Source of the DNA: an uncultured bacterium
GTDB taxonomy: Bacteria > Bacillota_I > Bacilli_A > RF39 > UBA660
Assembly: GCA_949291455.1 (NCBI GenBank)
Contig: CASEVQ010000004.1
Location: 1 to 57,055 of the forward strand
DNA length: 57,055 nucleotides
Direction of reading: 5' to 3'
Position 1 is the first letter of the stretch, and every line of letters starts with the position of its first letter. This document shows, piece by piece, positions 5,937 through 45,107 of the stretch. A program made the position numbers and the translations under genes. The notes beneath the pieces are model-generated. The model made no database searches. It was given only the letters and a program-made list of their open reading frames with translations, and was not told where the DNA came from.

Positions 5937-7520
5937 TTATTCTCCGCTCGTTCCATAGTTAGATAGCACTCTAGCGCTTGGATCATTAACATTACATCCT
6001 TCCCATTCTTTATTTGGCATCCAATAATCAATTATTAAATTATCTCTATTGGTATAATATTTTTCAAAAATTTCTCTATACATTAATGATTCTTTTGTAA
6101 ATGGTACATGACTTTTATATTTTTTTATTTTTAATTGATAATCGTCATCACTATATAATTCATTGGCTAATTCTTTTAAATCATCTACTAAAGAGTGTCC
6201 TACTGCATCACTAAACGCAGCTTTTTCTCTATATAAAATATTTTTAGGTAAATAGTCATCTTTAAATGCCTGTCTCAATAAATATTTTCCCATTTTATAT
6301 TTATTTAATTTTTTTTCTGGATCAATTCCCATTACATAGTCAACAAATTCTAAATCTGCAAAAGGCACTCTTGCTTCTATTGATACTCCCGATATACATC
6401 TATCAGCACGCAATACATCATACATATATAATTCTCTTATTCTTTTTTCACTTTCTTTTTGAAATTCTTTTGCATTTGGAGCAAAATCTGTATATTTATA
6501 TCCAAATAATTCATCGCTAACTTCCCCTGTTAATAATACTTTAATATCTGTATTTTCTCTAATCCATTTACATAATAAATACATTCCAATTGAAGCTCTT
6601 ATTGTTGTTATATCCCATGTTTCTAGCTTATAAATAACTTCTTCTAGAGCTTTTTTTATATCTTCTTTTGTTATTATTACTTCAGTATGATTACTGCCAA
6701 TGTATTTTGCAACTTGTTTAGCATATTTTAAATCAATTGCATCTTTATCCATTCCTATAGAAAATGTTCTTATAGGCTTTTTTAAATATTTTGTTGCAAT
6801 GCTACAAACTAAACTAGAATCAAGTCCTCCACTTAATAGAAAACCTAAAGGAGCATCTGAGTCAAGTCTTTTTATAACTGCTTTTGTTAGTCTTTTATTT
6901 ATTTCTTTAAAAATAGTATTCAAATTGTCATTATTTCTTTTATGAACTTCTGTTGCATCATAGTATTTAGTAAAAATACCATTTATGTAAAAATATCCAG
7001 GTGGAAAGGGGTGCACTTCTTTGCATAAATCGTTTATTGCTTTTACTTCACTTGCAAACATTATTTCACCACTTATTTTTGAAAATCCATAAAACATTGG
7101 TCTTATTCCAATTGGGTCTCTGGCAGCAATTATTTTTTTAGCATTTTCATCATACATTACAAGTGCGTATTCTGCATCTAGTCTATTAAACATTTCAATT
7201 CCATATGTTTCATACATAGGTATTAAAATTTCACAATCACTTTCACTTTCGAATGTATATCCTTTTTTCATTAGAATTTTCTTTTCTTTTCGAAAACCAT
7301 ATAATTCTCCATTACATACAACTATCTTATTATTTTTTTCAAATGGTTGCATTCCTTTTTCATCCAATCCCATTATTGCTAATCTATGAAAAAGAAACGT
7401 ATTTGAATCTTTTTCGATTATTTTATTCATATCTGGTCCACGATGTTTTATTTTTTTAAATTCCTTTTCTAATTCTTCTTTTGATATATCTTTTTTTGTA
7501 TATACCATAAATCCACACAT
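5937..7520 (-). CDS. asnB: asparagine synthase (glutamine-hydrolysing)
   Basis: 527 aa. MCGF N-terminal nucleophile Cys2 and SGGLDSS PP-loop. Confidence 0.9.
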   Translation of the reverse strand: MCGFMVYTKKDISKEELEKEFKKIKHRGPDMNKIIEKDSNTFLFHRLAIMGLDEKGMQPFEKNNKIVVCNGELYGFRKEKKILMKKGYTFESESDCEILIPMYETYGIEMFNRLDAEYALVMYDENAKKIIAARDPIGIRPMFYGFSKISGEIMFASEVKAINDLCKEVHPFPPGYFYINGIFTKYYDATEVHKRNNDNLNTIFKEINKRLTKAVIKRLDSDAPLGFLLSGGLDSSLVCSIATKYLKKPIRTFSIGMDKDAIDLKYAKQVAKYIGSNHTEVIITKEDIKKALEEVIYKLETWDITTIRASIGMYLLCKWIRENTDIKVLLTGEVSDELFGYKYTDFAPNAKEFQKESEKRIRELYMYDVLRADRCISGVSIEARVPFADLEFVDYVMGIDPEKKLNKYKMGKYLLRQAFKDDYLPKNILYREKAAFSDAVGHSLVDDLKELANELYSDDDYQLKIKKYKSHVPFTKESLMYREIFEKYYTNRDNLIIDYWMPNKEWEGCNVNDPSARVLSNYGTSGE

Positions 7521-7560: not shown

Positions 7561-7782
7561 TAAAATAAAAAGTTATTCTTCCCAACAATGAGACGAATAA
7601 CTGAAAATCCGCGGTACCACCCAAATTATCATATTTACATGATCACTTTTAGTTCTAACAAACCTAGTAATATGATAACGGATTACAATCCGGTCTAACC
7701 TACTTGAATTCTTTCGATAGACAACTCCGAAGTGTTCTTTCATATTAACTCTATTACTAAGTTCACACTATCCTTAGCTCAC
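7561..7782 (-). promoter_or_regulatory. T-box riboswitch leader (candidate tRNA-Asn specificity) controlling asnB
   Basis: The minus strand carries the T-box sequence AATTTGGGTGGTACCGCG (plus 7610-7622 = CGCGGTACCACCC). A terminator AGTTATTC..GAATAACT plus a T-run follows (7561-7602). AGTA/AGAG motifs lie in the Stem I region. AAC codons occur in loop-like contexts (GAAAG-AAC-A). Upstream promoter candidate TTGATG-17-TAAAGT (7787-7815). Confidence 0.8.
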
Positions 7783-7840
7783 TTTAACTTTATTAATATT
7801 ACTTTTCTTCATCAAAGTTATTAATTTAATAATATATTTT

Positions 7841-23283: not shown

Positions 23284-24813
23284 CTATATTTCTTCAAATA
23301 ATTCTCTTGCTTTTTTTCGTAAATTATTTTTTTCATTTTTTACTATATCATTTTCTTCTATATATTTAAAACTATTTTTATCTACTTTATACATTTCTAT
23401 GTATTGATTCCATTCGGTTTCTGATAAACAAATTGTTTTATATTTTTTTTGAAAAATTTTTTCAAATATTTCATCTACTTTATATATATCGTTATTTATT
23501 TGTTCTGAAATACCTATAAGCTTCGATGTTAAAATTATATTTTGACTACTTGCTGCTACTGGCATTATATCAGAACTTAATAATCTAGCTAAATTTCCAT
23601 ATTCTGTATCAAATGCTAAATTTTTCAACTCATTCCATTTATTCCTTATATCTATTATTATTTGTTTTTCCGGATTACACAATGTATTTGATACTCTTAT
23701 TTTTTTTAAATCGTTTTTTATATTTTGCGTTTGATTAATATTTATTTCTTCTTCATTTTTTTTAATTACATTCTTCTTATTATTACTACTATTATTATTT
23801 TCATCTAGCATCATATCCAATAGTGTTACCTCAAAAATTATTTTTGGGTTTTCTGACTTTTTCATGCTATTTGATAATTCATCTAATTTTTTTATAATCA
23901 AACATTTGTTTGAATTGTATTCTTTTTGATTAATTATTATATTTTTTTCATATTCTATTAAATCATTGGTTAATTTTATTAAATCTATTCCATTATTATA
24001 AAATTCGTTTATTTTATTTAAAATCGCTTCTATATTTTTATTTTCAAATAGCAATAAAAAATTTTGCAATTCTTCGTCTGATATGTTTCCAGATATTTCT
24101 TTTATTGTATTAATATTTATTTCATCTTCTGAATATGAAATTGCTTTTTCTAATAATCCTATTGCATCTCGTAATCCACCATTTGAATATTTTGCTATTT
24201 CTTCAATAGCATTATTTTCAATTTTTATTTTTTCTTTTTCCGATATTTCCTTTAATTTTTCTTTTATATCATTTTCTTTTATTTTCATAAATTCAAGAGT
24301 CTGACATCTTGATATAATTGTTGCTGGAACTTTATTAATTTCTGTTGTTGCTAATATAAAAATTATATGTTCTGGTGGTTCTTCCAATGTTTTTAATAAT
24401 GCATTAAATGCACCAATAGATAACATATGCACTTCATCAATGATATATACTTTATATTTTAATTCTGAAGGAACAAAATTAACTTTATTTTTTAATTCTC
24501 TAATTTCATCAACTCCGTTATTTGATGCAGCATCTATCTCAATTATATCAACGCATTCTTTTTCGTTTGATAATAAACAATTATTACACTTTTCACATTG
24601 TATTCCATTATTATTATCTAAGCAATTAACTGCTCTAGAAAAAATTTTTGCAATAGATGTTTTTCCTGTTCCTCTTGGGCCATAAAACAAATACGCATGA
24701 GCAATTTTTTTATTTCTTATTGAATTTTTCAATATTTTAACAGTAATTTTTTGTCCAGAGACTTCATCAAAGTTTTTAGGTCGATATTTTCTATATAATG
24801 CTTGATATTTCAT
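23284..24813 (-). CDS. dnaX: DNA polymerase III subunit gamma/tau
   Basis: YRKYRPKNFDEV, GPRGTGKTS, Cys cluster CEKCNNC and IIDEVHML. Start at the ATG after GGAGG; the ORF track extends to 24828. Confidence 0.95.
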   Translation of the reverse strand: MKYQALYRKYRPKNFDEVSGQKITVKILKNSIRNKKIAHAYLFYGPRGTGKTSIAKIFSRAVNCLDNNNGIQCEKCNNCLLSNEKECVDIIEIDAASNNGVDEIRELKNKVNFVPSELKYKVYIIDEVHMLSIGAFNALLKTLEEPPEHIIFILATTEINKVPATIISRCQTLEFMKIKENDIKEKLKEISEKEKIKIENNAIEEIAKYSNGGLRDAIGLLEKAISYSEDEININTIKEISGNISDEELQNFLLLFENKNIEAILNKINEFYNNGIDLIKLTNDLIEYEKNIIINQKEYNSNKCLIIKKLDELSNSMKKSENPKIIFEVTLLDMMLDENNNSSNNKKNVIKKNEEEININQTQNIKNDLKKIRVSNTLCNPEKQIIIDIRNKWNELKNLAFDTEYGNLARLLSSDIMPVAASSQNIILTSKLIGISEQINNDIYKVDEIFEKIFQKKYKTICLSETEWNQYIEMYKVDKNSFKYIEENDIVKNEKNNLRKKARELFEEI

Positions 24814-24919
24814 TTTGCCTCCTTTCATTTATTTATATTATTATATCATATAAATATTTATTATTATAAAATTTTTTCCACATTTTTATTTTATATATAG
24901 CATTATTTATTCTCCATTT

Positions 24920-24935
24920 TATTTCCCGGGAAATA
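24920..24935. promoter_or_regulatory. NBS-1, Noc-binding-site-type palindrome
   Basis: TATTTCCCGGGAAATA is a perfect 16-bp palindrome containing the B. subtilis NBS core ATTTCCCGGGAAAT. Confidence 0.8.
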
Positions 24936-24967
24936 TTTTAGTGTTTTAGCTTCGTTCTCTTTTTTTA

Positions 24968-24983
24968 TGTTTCACGTGTAACA
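24968..24983. promoter_or_regulatory. parS-1, ParB/Spo0J binding site
   Basis: TGTTTCACGTGTAACA. Its reverse complement TGTTACACGTGAAACA fits TGTTNCACGTGAAACA exactly. Confidence 0.8.
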
Positions 24984-25002
24984 TTTCTTTTTTCCACTGT
25001 TT

Positions 25003-25018
25003 TATTTCCCGGGAAATA
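25003..25018. promoter_or_regulatory. NBS-2
   Basis: TATTTCCCGGGAAATA, perfect. Confidence 0.8.
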
Positions 25019-25049
25019 TTTTGGCTTTTTAACTTCGTTCTCTTTTTTA

Positions 25050-25065
25050 TGTTTCACGTGTAACA
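25050..25065. promoter_or_regulatory. parS-2
   Basis: TGTTTCACGTGTAACA, identical to parS-1. Confidence 0.8.
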
Positions 25066-25084
25066 TTTCTTTTTTCCACTGTTT

Positions 25085-25100
25085 TATTTCCCGGGAAATA
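25085..25100. promoter_or_regulatory. NBS-3
   Basis: TATTTCCCGGGAAATA, perfect. Confidence 0.8.
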
Positions 25101-25131
25101 TTTTGGCTTTTTTGCTTCGTTCTCTTTTTTA

Positions 25132-25147
25132 TGTTTCACGTGTAACA
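25132..25147. promoter_or_regulatory. parS-3
   Basis: TGTTTCACGTGTAACA. Confidence 0.8.
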
Positions 25148-25166
25148 TTTCTTTTTTCCACTGCTT

Positions 25167-25182
25167 TATTTCCCGGGAAATA
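25167..25182. promoter_or_regulatory. NBS-4
   Basis: TATTTCCCGGGAAATA, perfect. Confidence 0.8.
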
Positions 25183-25212
25183 TTTTGCTTTTTTGCTTCG
25201 TTCTCTTTTTTA

Positions 25213-25228
25213 TGTTTCACGTGTAACA
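25213..25228. promoter_or_regulatory. parS-4
   Basis: TGTTTCACGTGTAACA. Confidence 0.8.
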
Positions 25229-25247
25229 TTTCTTTTTTCCACTGCTT

Positions 25248-25263
25248 TATTTCCCGGGAAATA
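25248..25263. promoter_or_regulatory. NBS-5
   Basis: TATTTCCCGGGAAATA, perfect. Confidence 0.8.
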
Positions 25264-25294
25264 TTTTAGCTTTTTAGCTTCGTTCTCTTTTTTA

Positions 25295-25310
25295 TATTTC
25301 ACGTGTAACA
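25295..25310. promoter_or_regulatory. parS-5, variant with a hybrid half-site
   Basis: TATTTCACGTGTAACA has one change (G to A at position 2). The left half becomes TATTTCAC, intermediate between the parS half TGTTTCAC and the NBS half TATTTCCC. Confidence 0.5.
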
Positions 25311-25329
25311 TTTCTTTTTTCCACTGTTT

Positions 25330-25345
25330 TATTTCCCAGAAAACA
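25330..25345. promoter_or_regulatory. NBS-6, degenerate
   Basis: TATTTCCCAGAAAACA has 3 mismatches to the perfect palindrome. Confidence 0.3.
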
Positions 25346-25379
25346 TTTTAGTTCTTTTTATCTTCGTTTTCTTTTTTTA

Positions 25380-25395
25380 TGTTTCACGTGTAACA
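25380..25395. promoter_or_regulatory. parS-6
   Basis: TGTTTCACGTGTAACA. Confidence 0.8.
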
Positions 25396-25414
25396 TTTCT
25401 TTTTTCCACTGTTT

Positions 25415-25430
25415 TATTTCCCGGGAAATA
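25415..25430. promoter_or_regulatory. NBS-7
   Basis: TATTTCCCGGGAAATA, perfect. Confidence 0.8.
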
Positions 25431-25461
25431 TTTTGGCTTTTTAGCTTCGTTCTCTTTTTTA

Positions 25462-25477
25462 TGTTTCACGTGTAACA
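25462..25477. promoter_or_regulatory. parS-7
   Basis: TGTTTCACGTGTAACA. Confidence 0.8.
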
Positions 25478-25496
25478 TTTCTTTTTTCCACTGTTT

Positions 25497-25512
25497 TATT
25501 TCCCGGGAAATA
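25497..25512. promoter_or_regulatory. NBS-8
   Basis: TATTTCCCGGGAAATA, perfect. Confidence 0.8.
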
Positions 25513-25544
25513 TTTTGGTTTTTTAGCTTCGTTTTCTTTTTTTA

Positions 25545-25560
25545 TGTTTCACGTGTAACA
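25545..25560. promoter_or_regulatory. parS-8
   Basis: TGTTTCACGTGTAACA. Confidence 0.8.
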
Positions 25561-25649
25561 TTTTTTTCCACTGTTTTATTTCTCTGAAAATTATCTTTTT
25601 CTCATATAAAGTTACTTTTTTTAATTTTTAGTAAAAAAAAAGAAAAGTT

Positions 25650-26090
25650 TTATTTTTCTTTATATTTTTTTCTTATTTTTAAAAATGCTTTTTTTATTAG
25701 TTCTGTAGTATTACTAACAATAGTATTTGAATTTATTTGAACTATTTTTGTTTTTAATATTACCTCATTATTTGATTCTGAAGAGTAAATTACCTTTTCT
25801 AATTTGCAACTATTTATAACTTCTTGACACATCCTACATGGTTTTAATGTAGTATAAATTCTGCAATTAATTAATCTCCAATTTTTCATTTTCTTATTTG
25901 CTTTTTCTATTGCAATAATTTCAGCATGTTTTGTTATTATTTGACTACTATCTCTTAAATTATGAGCTTTCGCTATTATTTTACCACTATCATTAGAAAC
26001 AATTATTGCACCCACTGGTACCTCACCTTTTTTATATGCCTTTAATGCTTCATTATATGCTATATTCATATAATATTCATCATTTTTCAT
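25650..26090 (-). CDS. tadA: tRNA adenosine(34) deaminase TadA
   Basis: CDA zinc motifs HAEIIAIE and PCRMC. 146 aa. Confidence 0.9.
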   Translation of the reverse strand: MKNDEYYMNIAYNEALKAYKKGEVPVGAIIVSNDSGKIIAKAHNLRDSSQIITKHAEIIAIEKANKKMKNWRLINCRIYTTLKPCRMCQEVINSCKLEKVIYSSESNNEVILKTKIVQINSNTIVSNTTELIKKAFLKIRKKYKEK

Positions 26091-26101
26091 ATAATCACTC
26101 C

Positions 26102-26184
26102 AAAAAAAAGATGCACATAAGTACTTATTACGTTAAGGCTGCTATTTTCCAATCCTGACCTGATTCCGCTGTACTTATTGCATC
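26102..26184 (-). ncRNA. ffs: small (4.5S-type) signal recognition particle RNA
   Basis: Minus strand: GATGCAATAAGTACAGCGGAATCAGGTCAGGATTGGAAAATAGCAGCCTTAACGTAATAAGTACTTATGTGCATC plus a T-run. It contains the conserved domain IV (CAGGUCAGG..GGAA tetraloop..AGCAGCC). The closing helix GATGCAATAAGTAC/GTACTTATGTGCATC pairs with one bulge. Confidence 0.75.
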
Positions 26185-26190
26185 AAAATT

Positions 26191-26219
26191 ATTTTACTAC
26201 ATATTTATTTAATTTTCAA
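26191..26219 (-). promoter_or_regulatory. promoter of the SRP RNA
   Basis: TTGAAA-17 nt-TAAAAT, ending 6 nt before the first base of the SRP helix. It begins 15 nt after the gyrA stop. Confidence 0.6.
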
Positions 26220-31811: not shown

Positions 31812-31841
31812 AATAAAAAAAGGGATTAATCCCTTTTTTTT
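31812..31841 (-). terminator. bidirectional hairpin terminator at the comK stop
   Basis: AAAAAAAGGGA-TTAA-TCCCTTTTTTTT, a hairpin flanked by an A-run and a T-run. It overlaps the comK stop codon and separates comK from recF. Confidence 0.6.
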
Positions 31842-32284
31842 GCATTTATTCTTTTTTTTATTAATGATTCTAATCTAGTAGCTCTATAAATTTGATTATC
31901 TAACGATAGTTTGGATGTTTCAATTATTAATTCTTTTCCATTATTGAAAGTAATTTTTGTGTTTTTTCCTATTTTTTCAGTTTTTTTAATACTATTTAAG
32001 TTTATCCAACAACAATCAGCTAAAAGTGATGACTTTGTTGGGAAAAAAATTAAACAACTACTCTCTTCTATTAAAATTGGCAACTTATAACTGCATTCTA
32101 ATATACTTTTAGCTGCAGTTAGTCTTCCTTTGTAACTACTACCATAGTATTTACAGCTTTCATCCATTACTTTGTATGCATCGTTATTTATTGTTTGTTC
32201 ACCATATTTTTCTATTATTTTTGTTGTTCCTACACATAATGAAATAATTGCATACGTATCTTCATTAATTTCATAATTTTCCAT
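31826..32284 (-). CDS. comK: ComK-family competence transcription factor (short, 152 aa)
   Basis: Alignment by eye with B. subtilis ComK: SCKYYGSSYKGRL vs SCRFFGSSYAGRK; LIFFPTKSSLLADCCWINL vs IFLFPTLSSTRPQCGWISH; ITFNNGKELII..LDNQIYRATRLES vs VTFSNGKTMEL..FENQVYRTAWLRT. Confidence 0.8.
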   Translation of the reverse strand: MENYEINEDTYAIISLCVGTTKIIEKYGEQTINNDAYKVMDESCKYYGSSYKGRLTAAKSILECSYKLPILIEESSCLIFFPTKSSLLADCCWINLNSIKKTEKIGKNTKITFNNGKELIIETSKLSLDNQIYRATRLESLIKKRINAKKRD

Positions 32285-33487: not shown

Positions 33488-33618
33488 ATTTGTTCCTTCT
33501 TTCTTTTATTTATATATATTTTATTATTATTACTGTGGATATTGTTGATAACTTTTATTTTTCTTTATTTTTTAATATATTTTTATTTTTAATCTGTGAA
33601 TAAAGTGTTTATATAGTG
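33488..33618. other. oriC part 2 (dnaA-dnaN intergenic): DnaA boxes plus an AT-rich unwinding candidate
   Basis: DnaA-box-like 9-mers on the minus strand: ATATCCACA (33534-33542), the adjacent TTATCAACA (33543-33551) and TTATTCACA (33595-33603), each 8/9 to TTATCCACA. Pure A/T stretch at 33505-33530. Confidence 0.75.
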
Positions 33619-34986
33619 TTAATTATGAATATCTTTTTCTAGTTTATCAATAGTTTCAGCAAAGTTTTTGTTTGTTTTTATTTCTTGTTCTATTTTTTCA
33701 CAAGAATGCATAACAGTTGAATGATCTTTTCCTCCAAATTCTATACCTATTTTAGGAAACGATTCATCGGTAAGTTTTCTACATAAGTACATTGCTATTT
33801 GTCTTGGAAATGCAATATCAGCATTTCTTTTTTTTGATTTTAAATCTTCAATTGATATTTTAAAGTAATCTGCTACTATTTTTTGAATTCTACTAACATC
33901 ATTTTTTTCGCTAAATCCTTTATTTACGTAATCTTTTAAGGCTTCTATTGCTAAGTTTAAATCAATTTCTGCTCCCATCATTGTTGAATATGCCATTAAT
34001 CTATTTACACTACCTTCTAGTTGTCTTATATCTGTTCCTATGTTAGATGCCATATATTCTATTACTTGTTCTGGTATTTCTTTTGTTACTTGTTCTCCTA
34101 CTATTCTTTTTTTTAAAATAGCAATTTTTAATTCAAAATCTGGTGGATATATATTTACTGGTAATCCCCAACTAAATCTTGTACGTAATCTATCTTCAAA
34201 TACTTTTAAATCGTTTGGTGACCGGTCTGATGAAATAATTATTTGTTTATTTTCACCATATAAGTTATTAAATGTATGAAAAAATTCTTTTTGTGATTCA
34301 GTAGCACCAGCTAAAAATTGAATGTCATCTATTATTAATACATCTATATTTCTATATTTTTGTTTAAAAAAGTCAATGTATTCAAAATTATTTTTATTCT
34401 CTTGTTTTTTTGTTATTTCAACAAATTCTGATACAAAGGTTTCACTAGTTACGTAAAGAATTCTCTTTTTACTATGTTTTTCTATATAATTTCCAATTGC
34501 ATGCATTAAATGAGTTTTTCCTAACCCACTATTCCCGTATATAAATAAAGGATTATATGTTTCACCAGGTTTTTCTGCCACTGCTAAGGCAGCTGCATGT
34601 GCAAAACGATTACTGTTACCTACAATAAAGTTATCAAATGTATATTTTTTATTTAGATTAGATTCAAATGTATTATCATTATATATATTATTTTCAATTA
34701 TTTGAGAATTTGTTACTTCATCTTCTTGTGTTAAATCTTCTTGAATTAGAAATTCTAATTCGACGGATTCTCCAATTTCTTCTATAAAACAGGAGACTAT
34801 TAATTTTTTGTAATTATTTGCTAAATGATCTTTATGTAGTGCATATGGTACTAATATTTTTGCAACTCCCCTATTTAAATCATATAATTTTGTTTCTTCG
34901 AACCAGGTTTGATATGATAGAGAATTTATTTCACTTTTTATTTTTTCTAAAATTTTAGACCATAAAACAGAATTATCCATATTCAT
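33619..34986 (-). CDS. dnaA: chromosomal replication initiator protein DnaA
   Basis: Walker A GNSGLGKTH, IDDIQFL, box VII RTRFSWGL and C-terminal HTH GGKDHSTVMH. Start taken at the ATG after GGGGGTG; GTG 34992 or ATG 34980 are also possible. Confidence 0.97.
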   Translation of the reverse strand: MNMDNSVLWSKILEKIKSEINSLSYQTWFEETKLYDLNRGVAKILVPYALHKDHLANNYKKLIVSCFIEEIGESVELEFLIQEDLTQEDEVTNSQIIENNIYNDNTFESNLNKKYTFDNFIVGNSNRFAHAAALAVAEKPGETYNPLFIYGNSGLGKTHLMHAIGNYIEKHSKKRILYVTSETFVSEFVEITKKQENKNNFEYIDFFKQKYRNIDVLIIDDIQFLAGATESQKEFFHTFNNLYGENKQIIISSDRSPNDLKVFEDRLRTRFSWGLPVNIYPPDFELKIAILKKRIVGEQVTKEIPEQVIEYMASNIGTDIRQLEGSVNRLMAYSTMMGAEIDLNLAIEALKDYVNKGFSEKNDVSRIQKIVADYFKISIEDLKSKKRNADIAFPRQIAMYLCRKLTDESFPKIGIEFGGKDHSTVMHSCEKIEQEIKTNKNFAETIDKLEKDIHN

Positions 34987-34992
34987 AATCAC

Positions 34993-35262
34993 CCCCTGAT
35001 AGAATTCCGAGCAAATCTATATGATATTTTAACTTAAATGTGGAAAAAAGAAAAGCAAAAAATAATAAAAAAAAATATCCACAATTTATTAACAAAGTTT
35101 TCCATAGTTTTTTTGCTTTGTTTTGAATATTTTTTTGATTTTTCCACATTTTCCACATTTTTTTATTAACATGTTATTTTGTAGTTATTAACAAGTCTGT
35201 TAATTATGTTGATAACTTAAAATATGTATTGTAATCTTTATTTTTTAATGTTAATATTTTAA
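34993..35262. other. oriC part 1 (upstream of dnaA): DnaA-box cluster and strand-switch point
   Basis: Boxes: TGTGGAAAA (35039-35047, reverse orientation), ATATCCACA (35075-35083), TTTTCCATA (35097-35105), tandem TTTTCCACA TTTTCCACA (35140-35157) and TGTTGATAA (35207-35215, reverse orientation). Genes diverge here, dnaA leftward and rpmH rightward. Confidence 0.8.
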
Positions 35263-41848: not shown

Positions 41849-43333
41849 ATGGATAATGAGGTTGTATATTTATATTTGGATGATATTATACCTAATAGAT
41901 TTCAACCAAGAGAAGTTTTTGATGATCAAGCTTTAAAAGAATTGGCGATTTCTATAAAAGAACATGGTGTTATTCAGCCAATTATTGTTCGAAAAGTTGA
42001 AAACAAATATGAGATAATAGCAGGAGAGAGAAGATATAAAGCTTCTACTATGGCTGGTCTTACAAAAATTCCAGCTATTGTAAAAAATTTGGATGATAAG
42101 GAAAGCTCTAAAATAGCTCTTATTGAAAATTTACAAAGAAGAGATTTAACTCCAATTGAAGAAGCTAGAACATATCAGAAAATTTTAGAATTAGAACCTG
42201 GTATGACTCAAGAACAATTAGCAGCTACTATGGGAAAAACTCAATCAGTAGTTTCAAATAAGTTAAGACTTTTAGCATTACCAGATGAGATACAAGATGC
42301 TTTGTTAAAAGAAAAAATTTCAGAGAGACATGCGAGAAGTTTATTAAATTTAGTAAATAAGAATGATCAAATAAAAATGTTAGATAAAGTAATTGCAGAA
42401 AGAATGACTGTAAGAGAATTAGATAAGGAAATTAAGGAAATGAACGATAATCAAGGACAAAATTCAGAAAATAGTAATTTAATTAATACAATTGGAAATA
42501 TTAATAATAATTCAAATTCTGTTATAAATAGTAATTTAAATAATAATAGTGTTGGCATTAATTCTGATGTTAATAATCCATTTAATATTAATAATCCATT
42601 TAAGAGTATACCTTCGACAAATGGTTTATTAGATTCTAACAATACTATTAATTCTAATCAGGCAAATTCATTTGTTTCAGATAAAAATTCATTAAATTCT
42701 AATATAAATAATAATGGCTTTATCAATAATAGTATAAGTAATAACAATAATTTTAATAATAATGTGAGTAGTAATAATAATATTAATGGTATACCACCTA
42801 TGCAATCAACAAATACATCTGTTGGTCAATCAAATTTAATCAATCCTACAACTGTTGATATAAATAAAATAAGAGAAAATGCAATGGATATTAATAAGCA
42901 AAATACTTCACCAGTAAATGTTAAAGATTTAATGAGAGATACATCATCAAATTCTAATTTTAAATTTGTTCCTAATGAAAATTCTAATGTTAATAATAAT
43001 AGCTTTGTGCCTAATAATAATCAATCTTCTTTTTTGAATAATTCTTCAACTCAAAAAGAAAATACTAATGGTTCTGGTTCTATTATTAATTTATTTAAAG
43101 AAGTTTCAAAAATGCCAGTTAATAATTTAAATACTGTTAATAATACTTCTTCGGTTCCGACTTTTAATCTTAATGCTTTTAATAATTCAAATAAGAAAGA
43201 TGTTATGCCAGCAATTAATGATATAAAGTCAACAGTTAAGAATATTGAAAATAAGGGTTATAAAGTTTTGATTGAAGAAAATGACACGGATAATTCTTAT
43301 CAGATTGTTATTAAAGTAGATAAAAATATATAA
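41849..43333 (+). CDS. noc: Noc-type ParB-family protein (nucleoid occlusion protein homolog) with a long Asn/Ser-rich insertion
   Basis: IIPNRFQPREVF (Noc-type box I), IAGERRYKA (CTP-binding GERRxRA), HTH GKTQSVVSNKLRLL..ISERHARSL (resembles B. subtilis Noc GKGQSTIANKLRLL..ITERHARAL), and a C-terminal KGYKVLIEENDTDNSYQIVIKVDK (cf. Noc SGVKLNTEEEEFEEYIQLTIRIPK). Position between rsmG and soj is conserved. An in-frame TAG at 41834 precludes a longer N-terminus. Confidence 0.8.
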   Translation: MDNEVVYLYLDDIIPNRFQPREVFDDQALKELAISIKEHGVIQPIIVRKVENKYEIIAGERRYKASTMAGLTKIPAIVKNLDDKESSKIALIENLQRRDLTPIEEARTYQKILELEPGMTQEQLAATMGKTQSVVSNKLRLLALPDEIQDALLKEKISERHARSLLNLVNKNDQIKMLDKVIAERMTVRELDKEIKEMNDNQGQNSENSNLINTIGNINNNSNSVINSNLNNNSVGINSDVNNPFNINNPFKSIPSTNGLLDSNNTINSNQANSFVSDKNSLNSNINNNGFINNSISNNNNFNNNVSSNNNINGIPPMQSTNTSVGQSNLINPTTVDINKIRENAMDINKQNTSPVNVKDLMRDTSSNSNFKFVPNENSNVNNNSFVPNNNQSSFLNNSSTQKENTNGSGSIINLFKEVSKMPVNNLNTVNNTSSVPTFNLNAFNNSNKKDVMPAINDIKSTVKNIENKGYKVLIEENDTDNSYQIVIKVDKNI

Positions 43334-43450: not shown

Positions 43451-44233
43451 ATGGGAAAGATGATTTCTTTAGTTAATCAAAAAGGTGGGGTTGGTAAGAC
43501 TACAACAAGTATAAATCTTTCAGCATCTTTGGCATATTTAGGTAAGAAAGTTTTATTATTAGATTTAGATCCTCAAGGAAATACGACTACTGGCATTGGA
43601 ATGAATAAGGGGGATATTGATAAAACTATTTATGATGTTTTAATTGGAAGATGTGATATTAAAGAGGCAATAATTCATACAAAATATAGAAAATTAGATT
43701 TACTTCCAGCTACTGTTAATTTAAGTGGGTTGGATACGGAGTTTTTTGAAAGAAGTAAGGAAGAACCAAATTTTGTTAAAGGTGCACAGTTAAAAAATAA
43801 AATAGATCCTATAAGAGATGAATATGATTTTATTATTGTTGATTGTCCTCCATCTCTTAGTATTATTACTATTAATGCTTTAACAGCTTCTAATTCAGTT
43901 ATTATTCCTGTACAGTGTGAGTTTTTGGCATTGGAAGGAATTATGCAGTTGTTAAATACTATTATGATGGCACAAAGACAATTAAATCCTAATTTGGATA
44001 TTGAAGGGGTTTTGCTTACAATGCTAGATTCAAGAGCAAATTTAGGATTTGAAGTTGTTGAAGAAATAAGAAAATATTTTAAAGAACGTGTTTATAATAC
44101 TATAATACCTAGGTTAGTGCGATTAGCAGAATGTCCATCACATGGAAAACCTATTATAGCATATGATCCAAAATGTAGGGCAACTGATGCTTATTTAAAT
44201 TTAGCAAAGGAAGTGATTGAGAGAAATGGATAA
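43451..44233 (+). CDS. soj: chromosome partitioning ATPase ParA/Soj
   Basis: Deviant Walker A NQKGGVGKTT. LLDLDPQGN and VDCPPSL. Confidence 0.95.
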   Translation: MGKMISLVNQKGGVGKTTTSINLSASLAYLGKKVLLLDLDPQGNTTTGIGMNKGDIDKTIYDVLIGRCDIKEAIIHTKYRKLDLLPATVNLSGLDTEFFERSKEEPNFVKGAQLKNKIDPIRDEYDFIIVDCPPSLSIITINALTASNSVIIPVQCEFLALEGIMQLLNTIMMAQRQLNPNLDIEGVLLTMLDSRANLGFEVVEEIRKYFKERVYNTIIPRLVRLAECPSHGKPIIAYDPKCRATDAYLNLAKEVIERNG

Positions 44234-45107
44234 TAATTTTAAAAGAAGGGCTTTAGGTAAAGGACTTGAAGAATTATTTAATAATGAGCAATTAGATTTT
44301 AACAGTTTAGAAGAAAAAATAGTAGATACTACACCAAAAGAAGAAATAATTGAAATAGATATAAATGAACTTAGAAGTAATCCATATCAACCAAGAAAAG
44401 TTTTTGATGAAGAAAAATTACAGGAATTAGCAAATTCTATTAAAGAACATGGAATATTTCAACCTATAATAGTAAAAAAAAGCAGTATTAAAGGATATGA
44501 GATAATTGCTGGTGAAAGACGTGTTAAAGCTGCCAATATAGCAGGATTATCTAAAATACCAGCTATCGTACGTGATTTTTCTGACCAACAAATGATGGAA
44601 ATAGCACTTCTTGAAAATTTACAAAGAGAAAATTTAAATGCTATTGAAGAAGCAATGGCTTATAGAAGTTTGATTAATAGTATGCAGATTACGCAAGAAG
44701 TATTAGCTAATCGTTTGGGTAAAAGTAGAAGTCATGTTACTAATATATTAGGTCTTTTAAACCTTCCAGAAGAAGTTAAAGACATGATTGTTGATAATAA
44801 AATATCGATGAGTCATGCTAGAATTCTTAGTAAAATGGAAAAAAAAGAGGAAATTTTAGCATTGGCAAATAAGATTGTTAATGAAAATTTAAATGTTAGA
44901 GAATTAGAAGATGTTTCAAAAGATGAGTCTGTTGCAAAAACTCATAAAATTAATAAGAAAAATAATTCAGAATATTCTTATATTGAAAATATATTGTGTG
45001 AAAAATTAGGAACTAAAGTAAAAATTAATAATAATAAGATAAATATTTCTTTTAGTAATATTAATGATTTAAATAGAATTTTAGAAATATTAAATATAAA
45101 TGAGTGA
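44226..45107 (+). CDS. spo0J: chromosome partitioning protein ParB/Spo0J
   Basis: N-terminal ParA-stimulating peptide ALGKGLEELF. Box I SNPYQPRKVF, IAGERRVKA, and HTH GKSRSHVTNILGLL with the ParB-type Arg. Start overlaps the soj stop. Confidence 0.9.
   Translation: MDNNFKRRALGKGLEELFNNEQLDFNSLEEKIVDTTPKEEIIEIDINELRSNPYQPRKVFDEEKLQELANSIKEHGIFQPIIVKKSSIKGYEIIAGERRVKAANIAGLSKIPAIVRDFSDQQMMEIALLENLQRENLNAIEEAMAYRSLINSMQITQEVLANRLGKSRSHVTNILGLLNLPEEVKDMIVDNKISMSHARILSKMEKKEEILALANKIVNENLNVRELEDVSKDESVAKTHKINKKNNSEYSYIENILCEKLGTKVKINNNKINISFSNINDLNRILEILNINE

Follow-up and report, generated by a model that had tools for sequence, protein, structure and literature searches.

The window, the whole stretch of DNA analysed here, comprises 57,055 nucleotides of a contig (CASEVQ010000004.1, GenBank assembly GCA_949291455.1) from an uncultured gut bacterium of the Bacillota_I. 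Between dnaX and tadA, close to the predicted replication origin (oriC), it carries a tandem array at 24917-25582, for which Tandem Repeats Finder (TRF) gave a period of 82, 8.1 copies, 93% matches and a score of 1133; no other strong array was reported there. Each 82-bp unit pairs one consensus parS, the site of the ParB-family protein Spo0J, with a single consensus Noc-binding site (NBS) for the paralogous protein Noc. The window encodes a protein of each type. The array and its sites are listed below, the sites as found by motif search unless another source is given.

24917..25582, no strand: tandem array, period 82 bp, 8.1 copies, one NBS and one parS in each unit (TRF, sequence, unit alignment)
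24920..24935, no strand: NBS 1, TATTTCCCGGGAAATA, exact
24968..24983, minus strand: parS 1, TGTTACACGTGAAACA, exact on that strand
25003..25018, no strand: NBS 2, exact
25050..25065, minus strand: parS 2, exact
25085..25100, no strand: NBS 3, exact
25132..25147, minus strand: parS 3, exact
25167..25182, no strand: NBS 4, exact
25213..25228, minus strand: parS 4, exact
25248..25263, no strand: NBS 5, exact
25295..25310, minus strand: parS 5, one mismatch, TGTTACACGTGAAATA
25330..25345, no strand: NBS 6, decayed, three changes, TATTTCCCAGAAAACA (sequence, unit alignment)
25380..25395, minus strand: parS 6, exact
25415..25430, no strand: NBS 7, exact
25462..25477, minus strand: parS 7, exact
25497..25512, no strand: NBS 8, exact
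25545..25560, minus strand: parS 8, exact
25577..25592, no strand: NBS remnant, four mismatches, TATTTCTCTGAAAATT (sequence)

The parS sites are 16-bp palindromes that fit the pattern TGTTNCACGTGAAACA, also written TGTTNCACGTGNAACA. Seven of the eight are exact on the minus strand and one, at 25295, has a single mismatch, with 0.02 sites expected by chance per window. The NBS core ATTTCCCGGGAAAT, part of the full 16-bp palindrome TATTTCCCGGGAAATA, occurs exactly seven times, every time within the array (0.12 expected by chance). Outside the array, neither site was found in the 57-kb window at up to two mismatches, and matches with three mismatches were at chance level. Both consensus sequences agree with those of Jalal 2020, where the half-sites are given as TGTTTCAC-GTGAAACA for parS and TATTTCCC-GGGAAATA for NBS, with two positions differing per half-site. 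Measured between centres, parS follows NBS at 48 bp, and the next NBS comes 35 bp further on. When the units of the window were aligned, leaving out the one with the decayed NBS, only 1 of 32 motif columns was variable, compared to 11 of 53 spacer columns.

A first-pass annotation made from the letters of the sequence had counted eight full copies and one decayed copy with these site starts and spacings, and TRF and the motif searches returned the same picture. The two consensus sequences that it gave proved correct against Jalal 2020, and the failure to see any further full site in the other 56 kb, including spo0J, held at up to two mismatches. The array had also been judged to be neither coding nor CRISPR (clustered regularly interspaced short palindromic repeats), and both candidates were rejected here as well: the period is not a multiple of 3 and there are no unique spacers. 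An open reading frame (ORF) of 82 aa with a TTG start (25103-25351, plus strand) lies wholly inside the array; it is a mechanical read across the repeats and almost certainly not a gene.

The proteins expected to act on these sites are encoded on the other side of the predicted origin:

41849..43333, plus strand: Noc orthologue, 494 aa, specificity residues Q-K-A-R, Noc-type C-terminal domain (annotation, alignments)
43451..44233, plus strand: Soj/ParA ATPase (annotation)
44226..45107, plus strand: Spo0J/ParB, with an LGKGL ParA-binding motif, GERR and ENLQR cytidine triphosphate (CTP) motifs and specificity residues R-I-N-S (annotation, alignment, Jalal 2020)

Four residues set the specificity of this family, R173/x/x/G201 in ParB and Q173/K179/K184/R201 in Noc, in Caulobacter ParB numbering (Jalal 2020). 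The window encodes a cognate ParB with an Arg173-type recognition helix, CTP motifs and a ParA-binding peptide, together with a ParA. The best structural relative of this ParB is B. subtilis Spo0J, and its earlier assignment as a Spo0J-type protein was borne out by the two kinds of motif and by the parS-type equivalent of Arg173. The specificity residues are R-(I/M)-(N/S)-S in the four species examined. The serine, at the position of Gly201, lies in the motif KISMSHAR, and is also found in L122:12414-13298, L123:2803-3684 and L124:12128-13012, where L-numbers are the labels of the compared loci or contigs.

The 494-aa protein has the Pfam domains ParB_N and HTH_ParB, that is, the CTPase and DNA-binding domains of the family. 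Its best PDB hits were Noc structures (7NG0, 7NFU and 7OL9), ahead of Spo0J, with 208 bits to 7NG0 versus 178 to Spo0J, and its gene lies between rsmG and soj, as in Bacillus. The specificity residues, Q-K-A-R in the window and Q-K-(A/T)-R in relatives, are of the NBS type; a single Lys at 179 or 184 is enough for the combination of Gln and Arg to read NBS (Jalal 2020). The protein starts MDNEVVYLYLDDIIPNRFQPR, with a stop codon 15 nt upstream of the ATG, and its residue 4 aligns with residue 27-29 of the Noc structures. The N-terminal amphipathic, membrane-targeting helix α1 and the helix α2 are both absent, and an N-terminus without the helix is common to all 46 non-redundant homologues (387-518 aa). 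In Noc, α1 and α2 mediate membrane binding, which is required for nucleoid occlusion (Jalal 2021). Since the membrane-targeting helix is missing, nucleoid occlusion cannot be assumed for this protein: the earlier call of a Noc-type protein stands insofar as it is an orthologue with NBS-type residues, but it lacks the membrane helix that defines Noc function.

Residues ~206-440 of the Noc-type protein form a linker of ~235 aa that is rich in Asn and Ser; across the homologues it is likewise long and variable, at roughly 190 to 300 aa. Four islands within it are conserved in the clade (NPTxVDINKIRENxVDI, VKDLMKD, FKFVP and FxxFF, the last being IINLF in the window), and these are also the most amphipathic 11-mers of the linker. 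The FxxFF island resembles FSRFF of the B. subtilis Noc membrane helix. AlphaFold2 gave a confident model only for the DNA-binding and C-terminal domains, and the model offered no hint of function; two of the islands coincide with short, low-confidence helices, and the remainder of the linker was predicted to be disordered.

The host species is represented by at least six further metagenome assemblies that enter the array, jointly from both flanks. An exact look-up of the TadA protein led to the short-read contigs L001 and L002, which extend from gyrA across tadA and break off one or two units into the array. A RecR look-up led to contigs from further samples with 99.7% nucleotide identity: L207, L208, L209 and L211 enter the array from the dnaX side and reach up to three parS and three NBS with the 82-bp period, and L205, a 57.8-kb scaffold, spans tadA, array and dnaX with a gap of 100 N inside the array. 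Breaks of this kind are typical of short reads at a repeat. Samples with the host species include ERZ17292904, ERZ28613881 and ERR10610578. The exact-protein look-up with the 514-aa DnaX returned no match, because gene callers use a 509-aa start, and a 32-mer specific to the window unit had no match in JGI metagenome contigs. The units in these other assemblies have spacer variants of their own, with both palindromes intact. The array thus exists in several populations and is not an assembly artefact; the copy number of 8.1 is as assembled here.

The surroundings of the array place it close to the origin. The features that bear on this are:

23284..24828, minus strand: dnaX, the low-coordinate flank of the array (gene annotation; candidate promoter 24916-24888)
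25650..26090, minus strand: tadA, the high-coordinate flank of the array (gene annotation)
26095..26194, minus strand: signal recognition particle (SRP) RNA gene, ffs; gyrA and ffs flank the parS/NBS cluster in most relatives (Rfam)
33534..35215, no strand: oriC region, ~33.5-35.5 kb (DnaA-box clusters on either side of dnaA at 33619-34992, GC-skew switch)

The window has a GC content of ~25%, the GC skew switches sign at ~35 kb, and DnaA-box clusters flank dnaA at 33534-33603 and 34973-35215. The left arm has the order dnaA, dnaN, a ComK-like gene, recF, gyrB, gyrA, SRP RNA, tadA, array, dnaX, ybaB, recR, and the right arm rsmG, the 494-aa ParB-family protein, soj, spo0J. The gene calls, GC skew and DnaA boxes put the array 8-10 kb from dnaA/oriC, in keeping with the first placement in the tadA-dnaX spacer at ~8-9.5 kb. 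No promoter-like or terminator-like site was found inside the array.

The array had been described as a feature of this genome, which is correct as far as it goes, but parS/NBS clusters turned out to be clade-wide and the regular tandem form only one of their forms. A pattern scan, with each species represented by a single genome, looked for parS sites that have an NBS core 5-35 bp away; it returned at least 119 stretches, one per species-level genome. Nearly all come from low-GC (22-37%) metagenome-assembled genomes (MAGs), most of them short-read, in which arrays often end at contig ends. Record labels among the composites listed include uncultured Bacilli, 'Tenericutes', 'Erysipelotrichaceae', Clostridium sp. 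CAG:710, CAG:417, CAG:1000 and similar names. Groups called CAG-710, CAG-417 and CAG-1000 probably fall within the GTDB order RF39 or close to it, although a literature search gave no confirmation, and the NCBI lineage of 'Scybalousia' contradicts itself. Every gene-containing locus among the matches listed has the synteny dnaA-dnaN-comK-recF-gyrB-gyrA-[cluster]-ffs-tadA-dnaX, and the order gyrA-[cluster]-SRP RNA-tadA-dnaX was found in 17 of the 18 loci checked. In the window, as in L071, its closest available relative (GyrB 92% identical), the cluster occupies the tadA-dnaX spacer instead; the unit of L071 is homologous, its period is 110 bp, and its sites are partly decayed. A known RNA family or an array of terminators was rejected as the identity of the clusters: Rfam gave only the SRP RNA nearby and nothing within them.

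The distribution of sites was determined over roughly 1 Mb of origin-proximal sequence. At up to one mismatch, the gyrA..dnaX interval of 118 loci among the matches listed contained 512 parS and 284 NBS in 143 kb, while the remainder contained 1 parS and 46 NBS in 737 kb. NBS is thus concentrated 19- to 32-fold in the cluster, in loci that were chosen for an NBS beside a parS, so that their NBS counts are biased upward. In relatives, neither site was found in the 12-21 kb around oriC and spo0J. Among the matches listed, the median cluster has four parS and two NBS in 431 bp, and in 12 species the clusters have at least six sites and alternate strictly. The largest such example noted, L056, has 11+11 strictly alternating sites over 2.5 kb, and its isolate name suggests a long-read assembly. 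Tandem repeats with periods of 42-393 bp were present at 30 loci, two of which belong to the window's own species, and in most of the larger arrays among them each unit has a single parS and a single NBS. Conservation between species is confined to the palindromes and 1-4 flanking bases: A-parS-T, at 99% and 96%, and AAAT-NBS-ATTT.

An unselected control sample was anchored on DnaX alone. All six of its loci with the synteny and GC content of the clade have two to seven parS in the spacers, and NBS is co-clustered with them in three of the six; ~70 loci of other lineages have no cluster. The parS cluster thus looks universal in the clade, while a co-clustered NBS is common but not universal. 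One clade locus, L125:1-2458, departs from all the others. Its DnaX is the most similar one (59%) among the dnaX-anchored metagenome loci; the ORF upstream of dnaX, of 357 aa, is unrelated, and neither parS nor NBS was found within 2.4 kb. This may reflect a rearrangement or a contig artefact. In a more distant lineage, L185 and L187 (GC 0.29, GyrA 57% identical) have the gyrB-gyrA-tadA-dnaX synteny and three dispersed parS, one of them inside dnaX, with no cluster and no NBS, which may be the ancestral state.

In ~30 species (for example L127:7041, L006 and L026; range L004-L135), dnaX also contains a perfect 16-bp NBS, ~1.0-1.2 kb into the gene, where the variable part of the protein is encoded; the window's own dnaX has none. 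These sites are read in two frames, as ..IISREI.. or ..NYFPGN.., so that the DNA motif and not the peptide is conserved. Judged by this double reading, the NBS is selected at the level of the DNA. In L126, parS sites lie within dnaX, at offsets of ~1.09 and 1.19 kb.

A third motif was enriched in some of the clusters. The DnaA-box-like TTWTNCACA occurs in the clusters of 25 of 84 species, including L017, L037, L055, L057 and L094, with 80 observed compared to 10.4 ± 3.2 in shuffled sequences, and the strict form TTATCCACA was observed 19 times where 0.6 was expected. Every unit of the window has TTTTCCACT (24990-24998 and the equivalent positions), and TTTTCCACA lies just beyond the array (24874-24882). 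These motifs mostly abut a parS and resemble a parS half-site, and either identity is possible.

The distances between adjacent parS and NBS in the clusters peak at ~26-27, 35-36 and 45-48 bp, with dips at ~24-25, 30-31, 40-41 and 50-51 bp, and the 35- and 48-bp spacings of the window coincide with peaks. In 103 non-redundant spacer families, the periodicity is ~11-11.5 bp (R = 0.29; p = 0.017 against a uniform null and 0.0006 against a jitter null); the species are related and therefore not independent, so that these statistics are suggestive only. The pattern suggests that the two dimers would be placed in a preferred rotational register. At the gyrA end, the commonest cluster start is a tight parS-NBS-parS triplet (31 of 84 loci; range L003-L121), and in 69 of 84 at least one of the three sites nearest that end is an NBS. 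Ranked by position, NBS are mildly over-represented at the cluster ends, with 58 and 45 compared to 32-41.

We interpret the array as the host's chromosomal centromere, a densely packed zone where two paralogous DNA clamps, both dependent on CTP, would load together, and we put the probability of this reading at roughly 70%. The parS/NBS clusters across the clade would probably represent a conserved two-protein centromere. In the proposed mechanism, Spo0J/ParB dimers would nucleate on the eight parS sites, close around the DNA upon binding of CTP and slide outward, and the resulting partition complex would be acted on by Soj/ParA, and probably by SMC as well. The Noc-derived paralogue would load, likewise as dimers, on the seven or eight NBS, at distances of 35 and 48 bp from the centres of the parS sites, and would spread from the same 0.66 kb. 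With both clamps loading and spreading from one array, the origin-proximal region would carry a mixed ParB/Noc-type nucleoprotein complex. The strict alternation of sites would result from tandem duplication of one parS+NBS unit, and the persistence of the palindromes, while unit length and spacers turn over, from selection acting on both palindromes.

The role of the Noc-type protein in such a complex is probably not classical membrane-tethered nucleoid occlusion, because the membrane-targeting helix is absent. Our best guess, and the more likely course, is that it recruits or organises via the long linker with its conserved short motifs. We entertain more tentatively a specific version of events, possible in our view and well short of an even chance, in which the membrane anchor of the Noc paralogue was lost and the protein came to serve at the centromere as a second, obligate partner clamp. 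Composite parS-NBS modules would then load ParB and the Noc-type protein next to each other, in helical register, and the two would form one mixed partition complex, which the linker would couple to division-site choice, to replication control through Soj/DnaA, or to condensation. Spo0J and Noc jointly act on Z-ring placement in B. subtilis (Hajduk 2019), and Noc controls replication initiation in S. aureus (Pang 2017); juxtaposed sites were not described in either case.

Several observations weigh against the centromere reading and the two-protein form of it. Occupancy of the array by either protein is deduced from sequence, most of the related arrays come from short-read MAGs, and the copy number in the window is that of one assembly. 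In the DnaX-anchored sample, NBS was absent from the cluster in three of the six clade loci, so that co-location, though frequent, is no requirement of the centromere. In Spo0J, Ser occupies the position at which Jalal 2020 call Gly201 invariant in ParB. The Noc-type protein has Ala in place of Lys184 of Noc, and it scored 292.4 bits against NCBIfam TIGR04285 (nucleoid_noc), below the cut-off of 315; without α1 and α2, its activity may also differ from that of Noc. The suggestive standing of the spacing statistics belongs here as well.

The main rival to a recruiting or organising role of the Noc-type protein is an antagonistic one, in which its clamp at NBS would act as a roadblock or competitor to the loading or spreading of ParB, or as an insulator of gyrA, ffs, tadA and dnaX. 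The sites are close enough for this, with parS and NBS only 6-32 bp apart edge to edge. In B. subtilis, both ParB and Noc entrap DNA as sliding clamps that close with CTP and spread (Jalal 2021); we infer that such clamps might be unable to pass each other. The NBS in the first three gyrA-end sites, the mild excess at cluster ends and the extra NBS inside dnaX, 1-3 kb away in ~30 species, would also suit a barrier. However, in the arrays an NBS lies between every pair of parS and not at the borders only, an insulator would not need 8-11 interleaved copies, and the periodicity of the spacing suggests accommodation side by side rather than exclusion. We regard antagonism as unlikely. It is very unlikely that the clade Spo0J, with its Ser201, reads both parS and NBS by itself, leaving the Noc-type protein irrelevant to the array. 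Dual-specificity variants do mostly have Thr or Ser at 201, and Ser is present in the Spo0J of all four species. The same variants also require basic residues, which the clade Spo0J lacks: binding to NBS needs Lys or Arg at 179 or 184, where Ile/Met and Asn/Ser are found, and a deep mutational scan classed R173 with a small polar residue at 201 as parS-specific (Jalal 2020). A conserved Noc orthologue with Gln-Lys-x-Arg is present, and the 46 NBS versus 1 parS outside the cluster fit a separate, NBS-specific factor.

The position of the array between tadA and dnaX on the transcribed strand, directly upstream of the candidate dnaX promoter, and the DnaA-box-like motifs in 25 of 84 species and in every window unit, might instead point to a mainly regulatory element for dnaX, tadA or ffs, or to titration of DnaA, with the ParB-family sites being secondary. 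We consider this highly improbable. The cluster occupies different spacers in different species, mostly gyrA-ffs but tadA-dnaX in the window, and is therefore not tied to one promoter, and the array itself is free of promoter-like and terminator-like sites. The DnaA-box-like motif, which resembles a parS half-site and abuts parS, is found in only ~30% of species, and the two conserved elements are exactly the consensus sites of ParB and Noc. Scarcely credible, finally, is a neutral minisatellite or assembly artefact, that is, one parS+NBS pair amplified by slippage or by the assembler. Duplication of one unit would yield strict alternation trivially, and the short-read assemblies do break inside the array; yet at least six independent assemblies reach several units from both sides with unit-specific variants, and many species, including L056, have arrays of differing unit length in which the palindromes are intact and the spacers diverged.

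The centromere reading rests on parts that are known from other systems. The host shares with the Spo0J-parS system of B. subtilis the 16-bp parS consensus, the origin-proximal location, a cognate Spo0J with ParA-binding and CTP motifs, the adjoining soj and the gene order rsmG-noc-soj-spo0J. In B. subtilis, parS sites are single and dispersed around the origin, with one within spo0J. In the host, by contrast, they all lie in one 0.66-kb array, interleaved with NBS, and none is present in spo0J or elsewhere within the 57 kb. Likewise, the NBS consensus, the position of the gene, the Gln/Lys/Arg residues and the Noc-type C-terminal domain match the Noc-NBS systems of B. subtilis and S. aureus, and some NBS of the clade are also scattered outside the cluster. 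Known NBS occur singly and are dispersed across the origin-proximal half to two-thirds of the chromosome, with 41 loci in S. aureus (Pang 2017). Those of the window, on the other hand, are not dispersed as single sites but all lie in one array, the NBS of the clade are concentrated in the centromere cluster, and the Noc-type protein has a long linker and no amphipathic helix.

The centromere sopC of the F plasmid consists of 43-bp repeats with one site type for one protein, and is plasmid-borne. The array was initially called sopC-like, and the architectural likeness holds: both are tandem arrays of short head-to-tail units, each with a palindromic ParB-family site. The window array differs in being chromosomal and syntenic in at least 119 species, and in having two site types for two paralogues. 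A link to plasmids or phages with partition proteins of their own was not borne out, and an origin from a mobile element or plasmid was rejected: the composite had 0 matches in viral contigs, and the array had no blastn match in plasmids or phages.

Caulobacter, Streptomyces and others have several parS grouped near oriC that act as one centromere (PMC5815017). The parS of the window differ from these in lying 82 bp apart, in a repeat, and in alternating with NBS. To our knowledge, the chromosomal parS clusters of that kind span kilobases, have unrelated spacers and contain no site for a second paralogue. The nearest man-made counterpart is mParSpot, in which engineered 8xParS and 8xNBS arrays serve for two-colour labelling of DNA (PMC11109969); both array types can be used because ParB-parS and Noc-NBS recognition are mutually specific. 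These are also eight-copy arrays of the same two consensus sites, but they are artificial, placed at separate loci in human cells, not interleaved and without a biological role.

The full-text literature searched, which included a 2025 survey of the ParB-CTPase fold and lay mostly outside subscription journals, yielded no report of parS and NBS being interleaved or co-clustered, nor of a Noc that lacks the membrane helix. The initial impression that an interleaved array was undescribed is thereby supported: parS, NBS, ParB, Noc and the tandem centromeres of plasmids are all known, and the arrangement is new within the literature searched.

ParB and Noc are the textbook pair for a duplicated DNA-binding protein that gains a new site and a new job, with segregation by ParB at a few origin sites contrasted to division control by Noc from many scattered ones. 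In this clade, by contrast, at least 119 species keep both sites adjacent at a single conserved locus, frequently in strict alternation, together with a Noc-type protein that lacks the occlusion feature. It offers a natural system for studying how two paralogous CTP-gated sliding clamps share or contest DNA, which functions the Noc family has apart from membrane tethering, and how a centromere is built in reduced-genome gut Bacilli, a group without a cultured model. A single 82-bp unit is a ready substrate for biochemistry with both proteins. If the Noc paralogue were indeed an obligate partner at the centromere, this would be a two-clamp bacterial centromere and a natural case of a duplicated DNA-binding protein returning to the locus of its ancestor.

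Two further features of the window may be mentioned. The gene between dnaN and recF (31826-32284, minus strand) belongs to the ComK family, and its position is kept in most of the related loci. A T-box leader (7586-7824, minus strand; Rfam, 118.9 bits) lies upstream of the ORF at 5937-7520.

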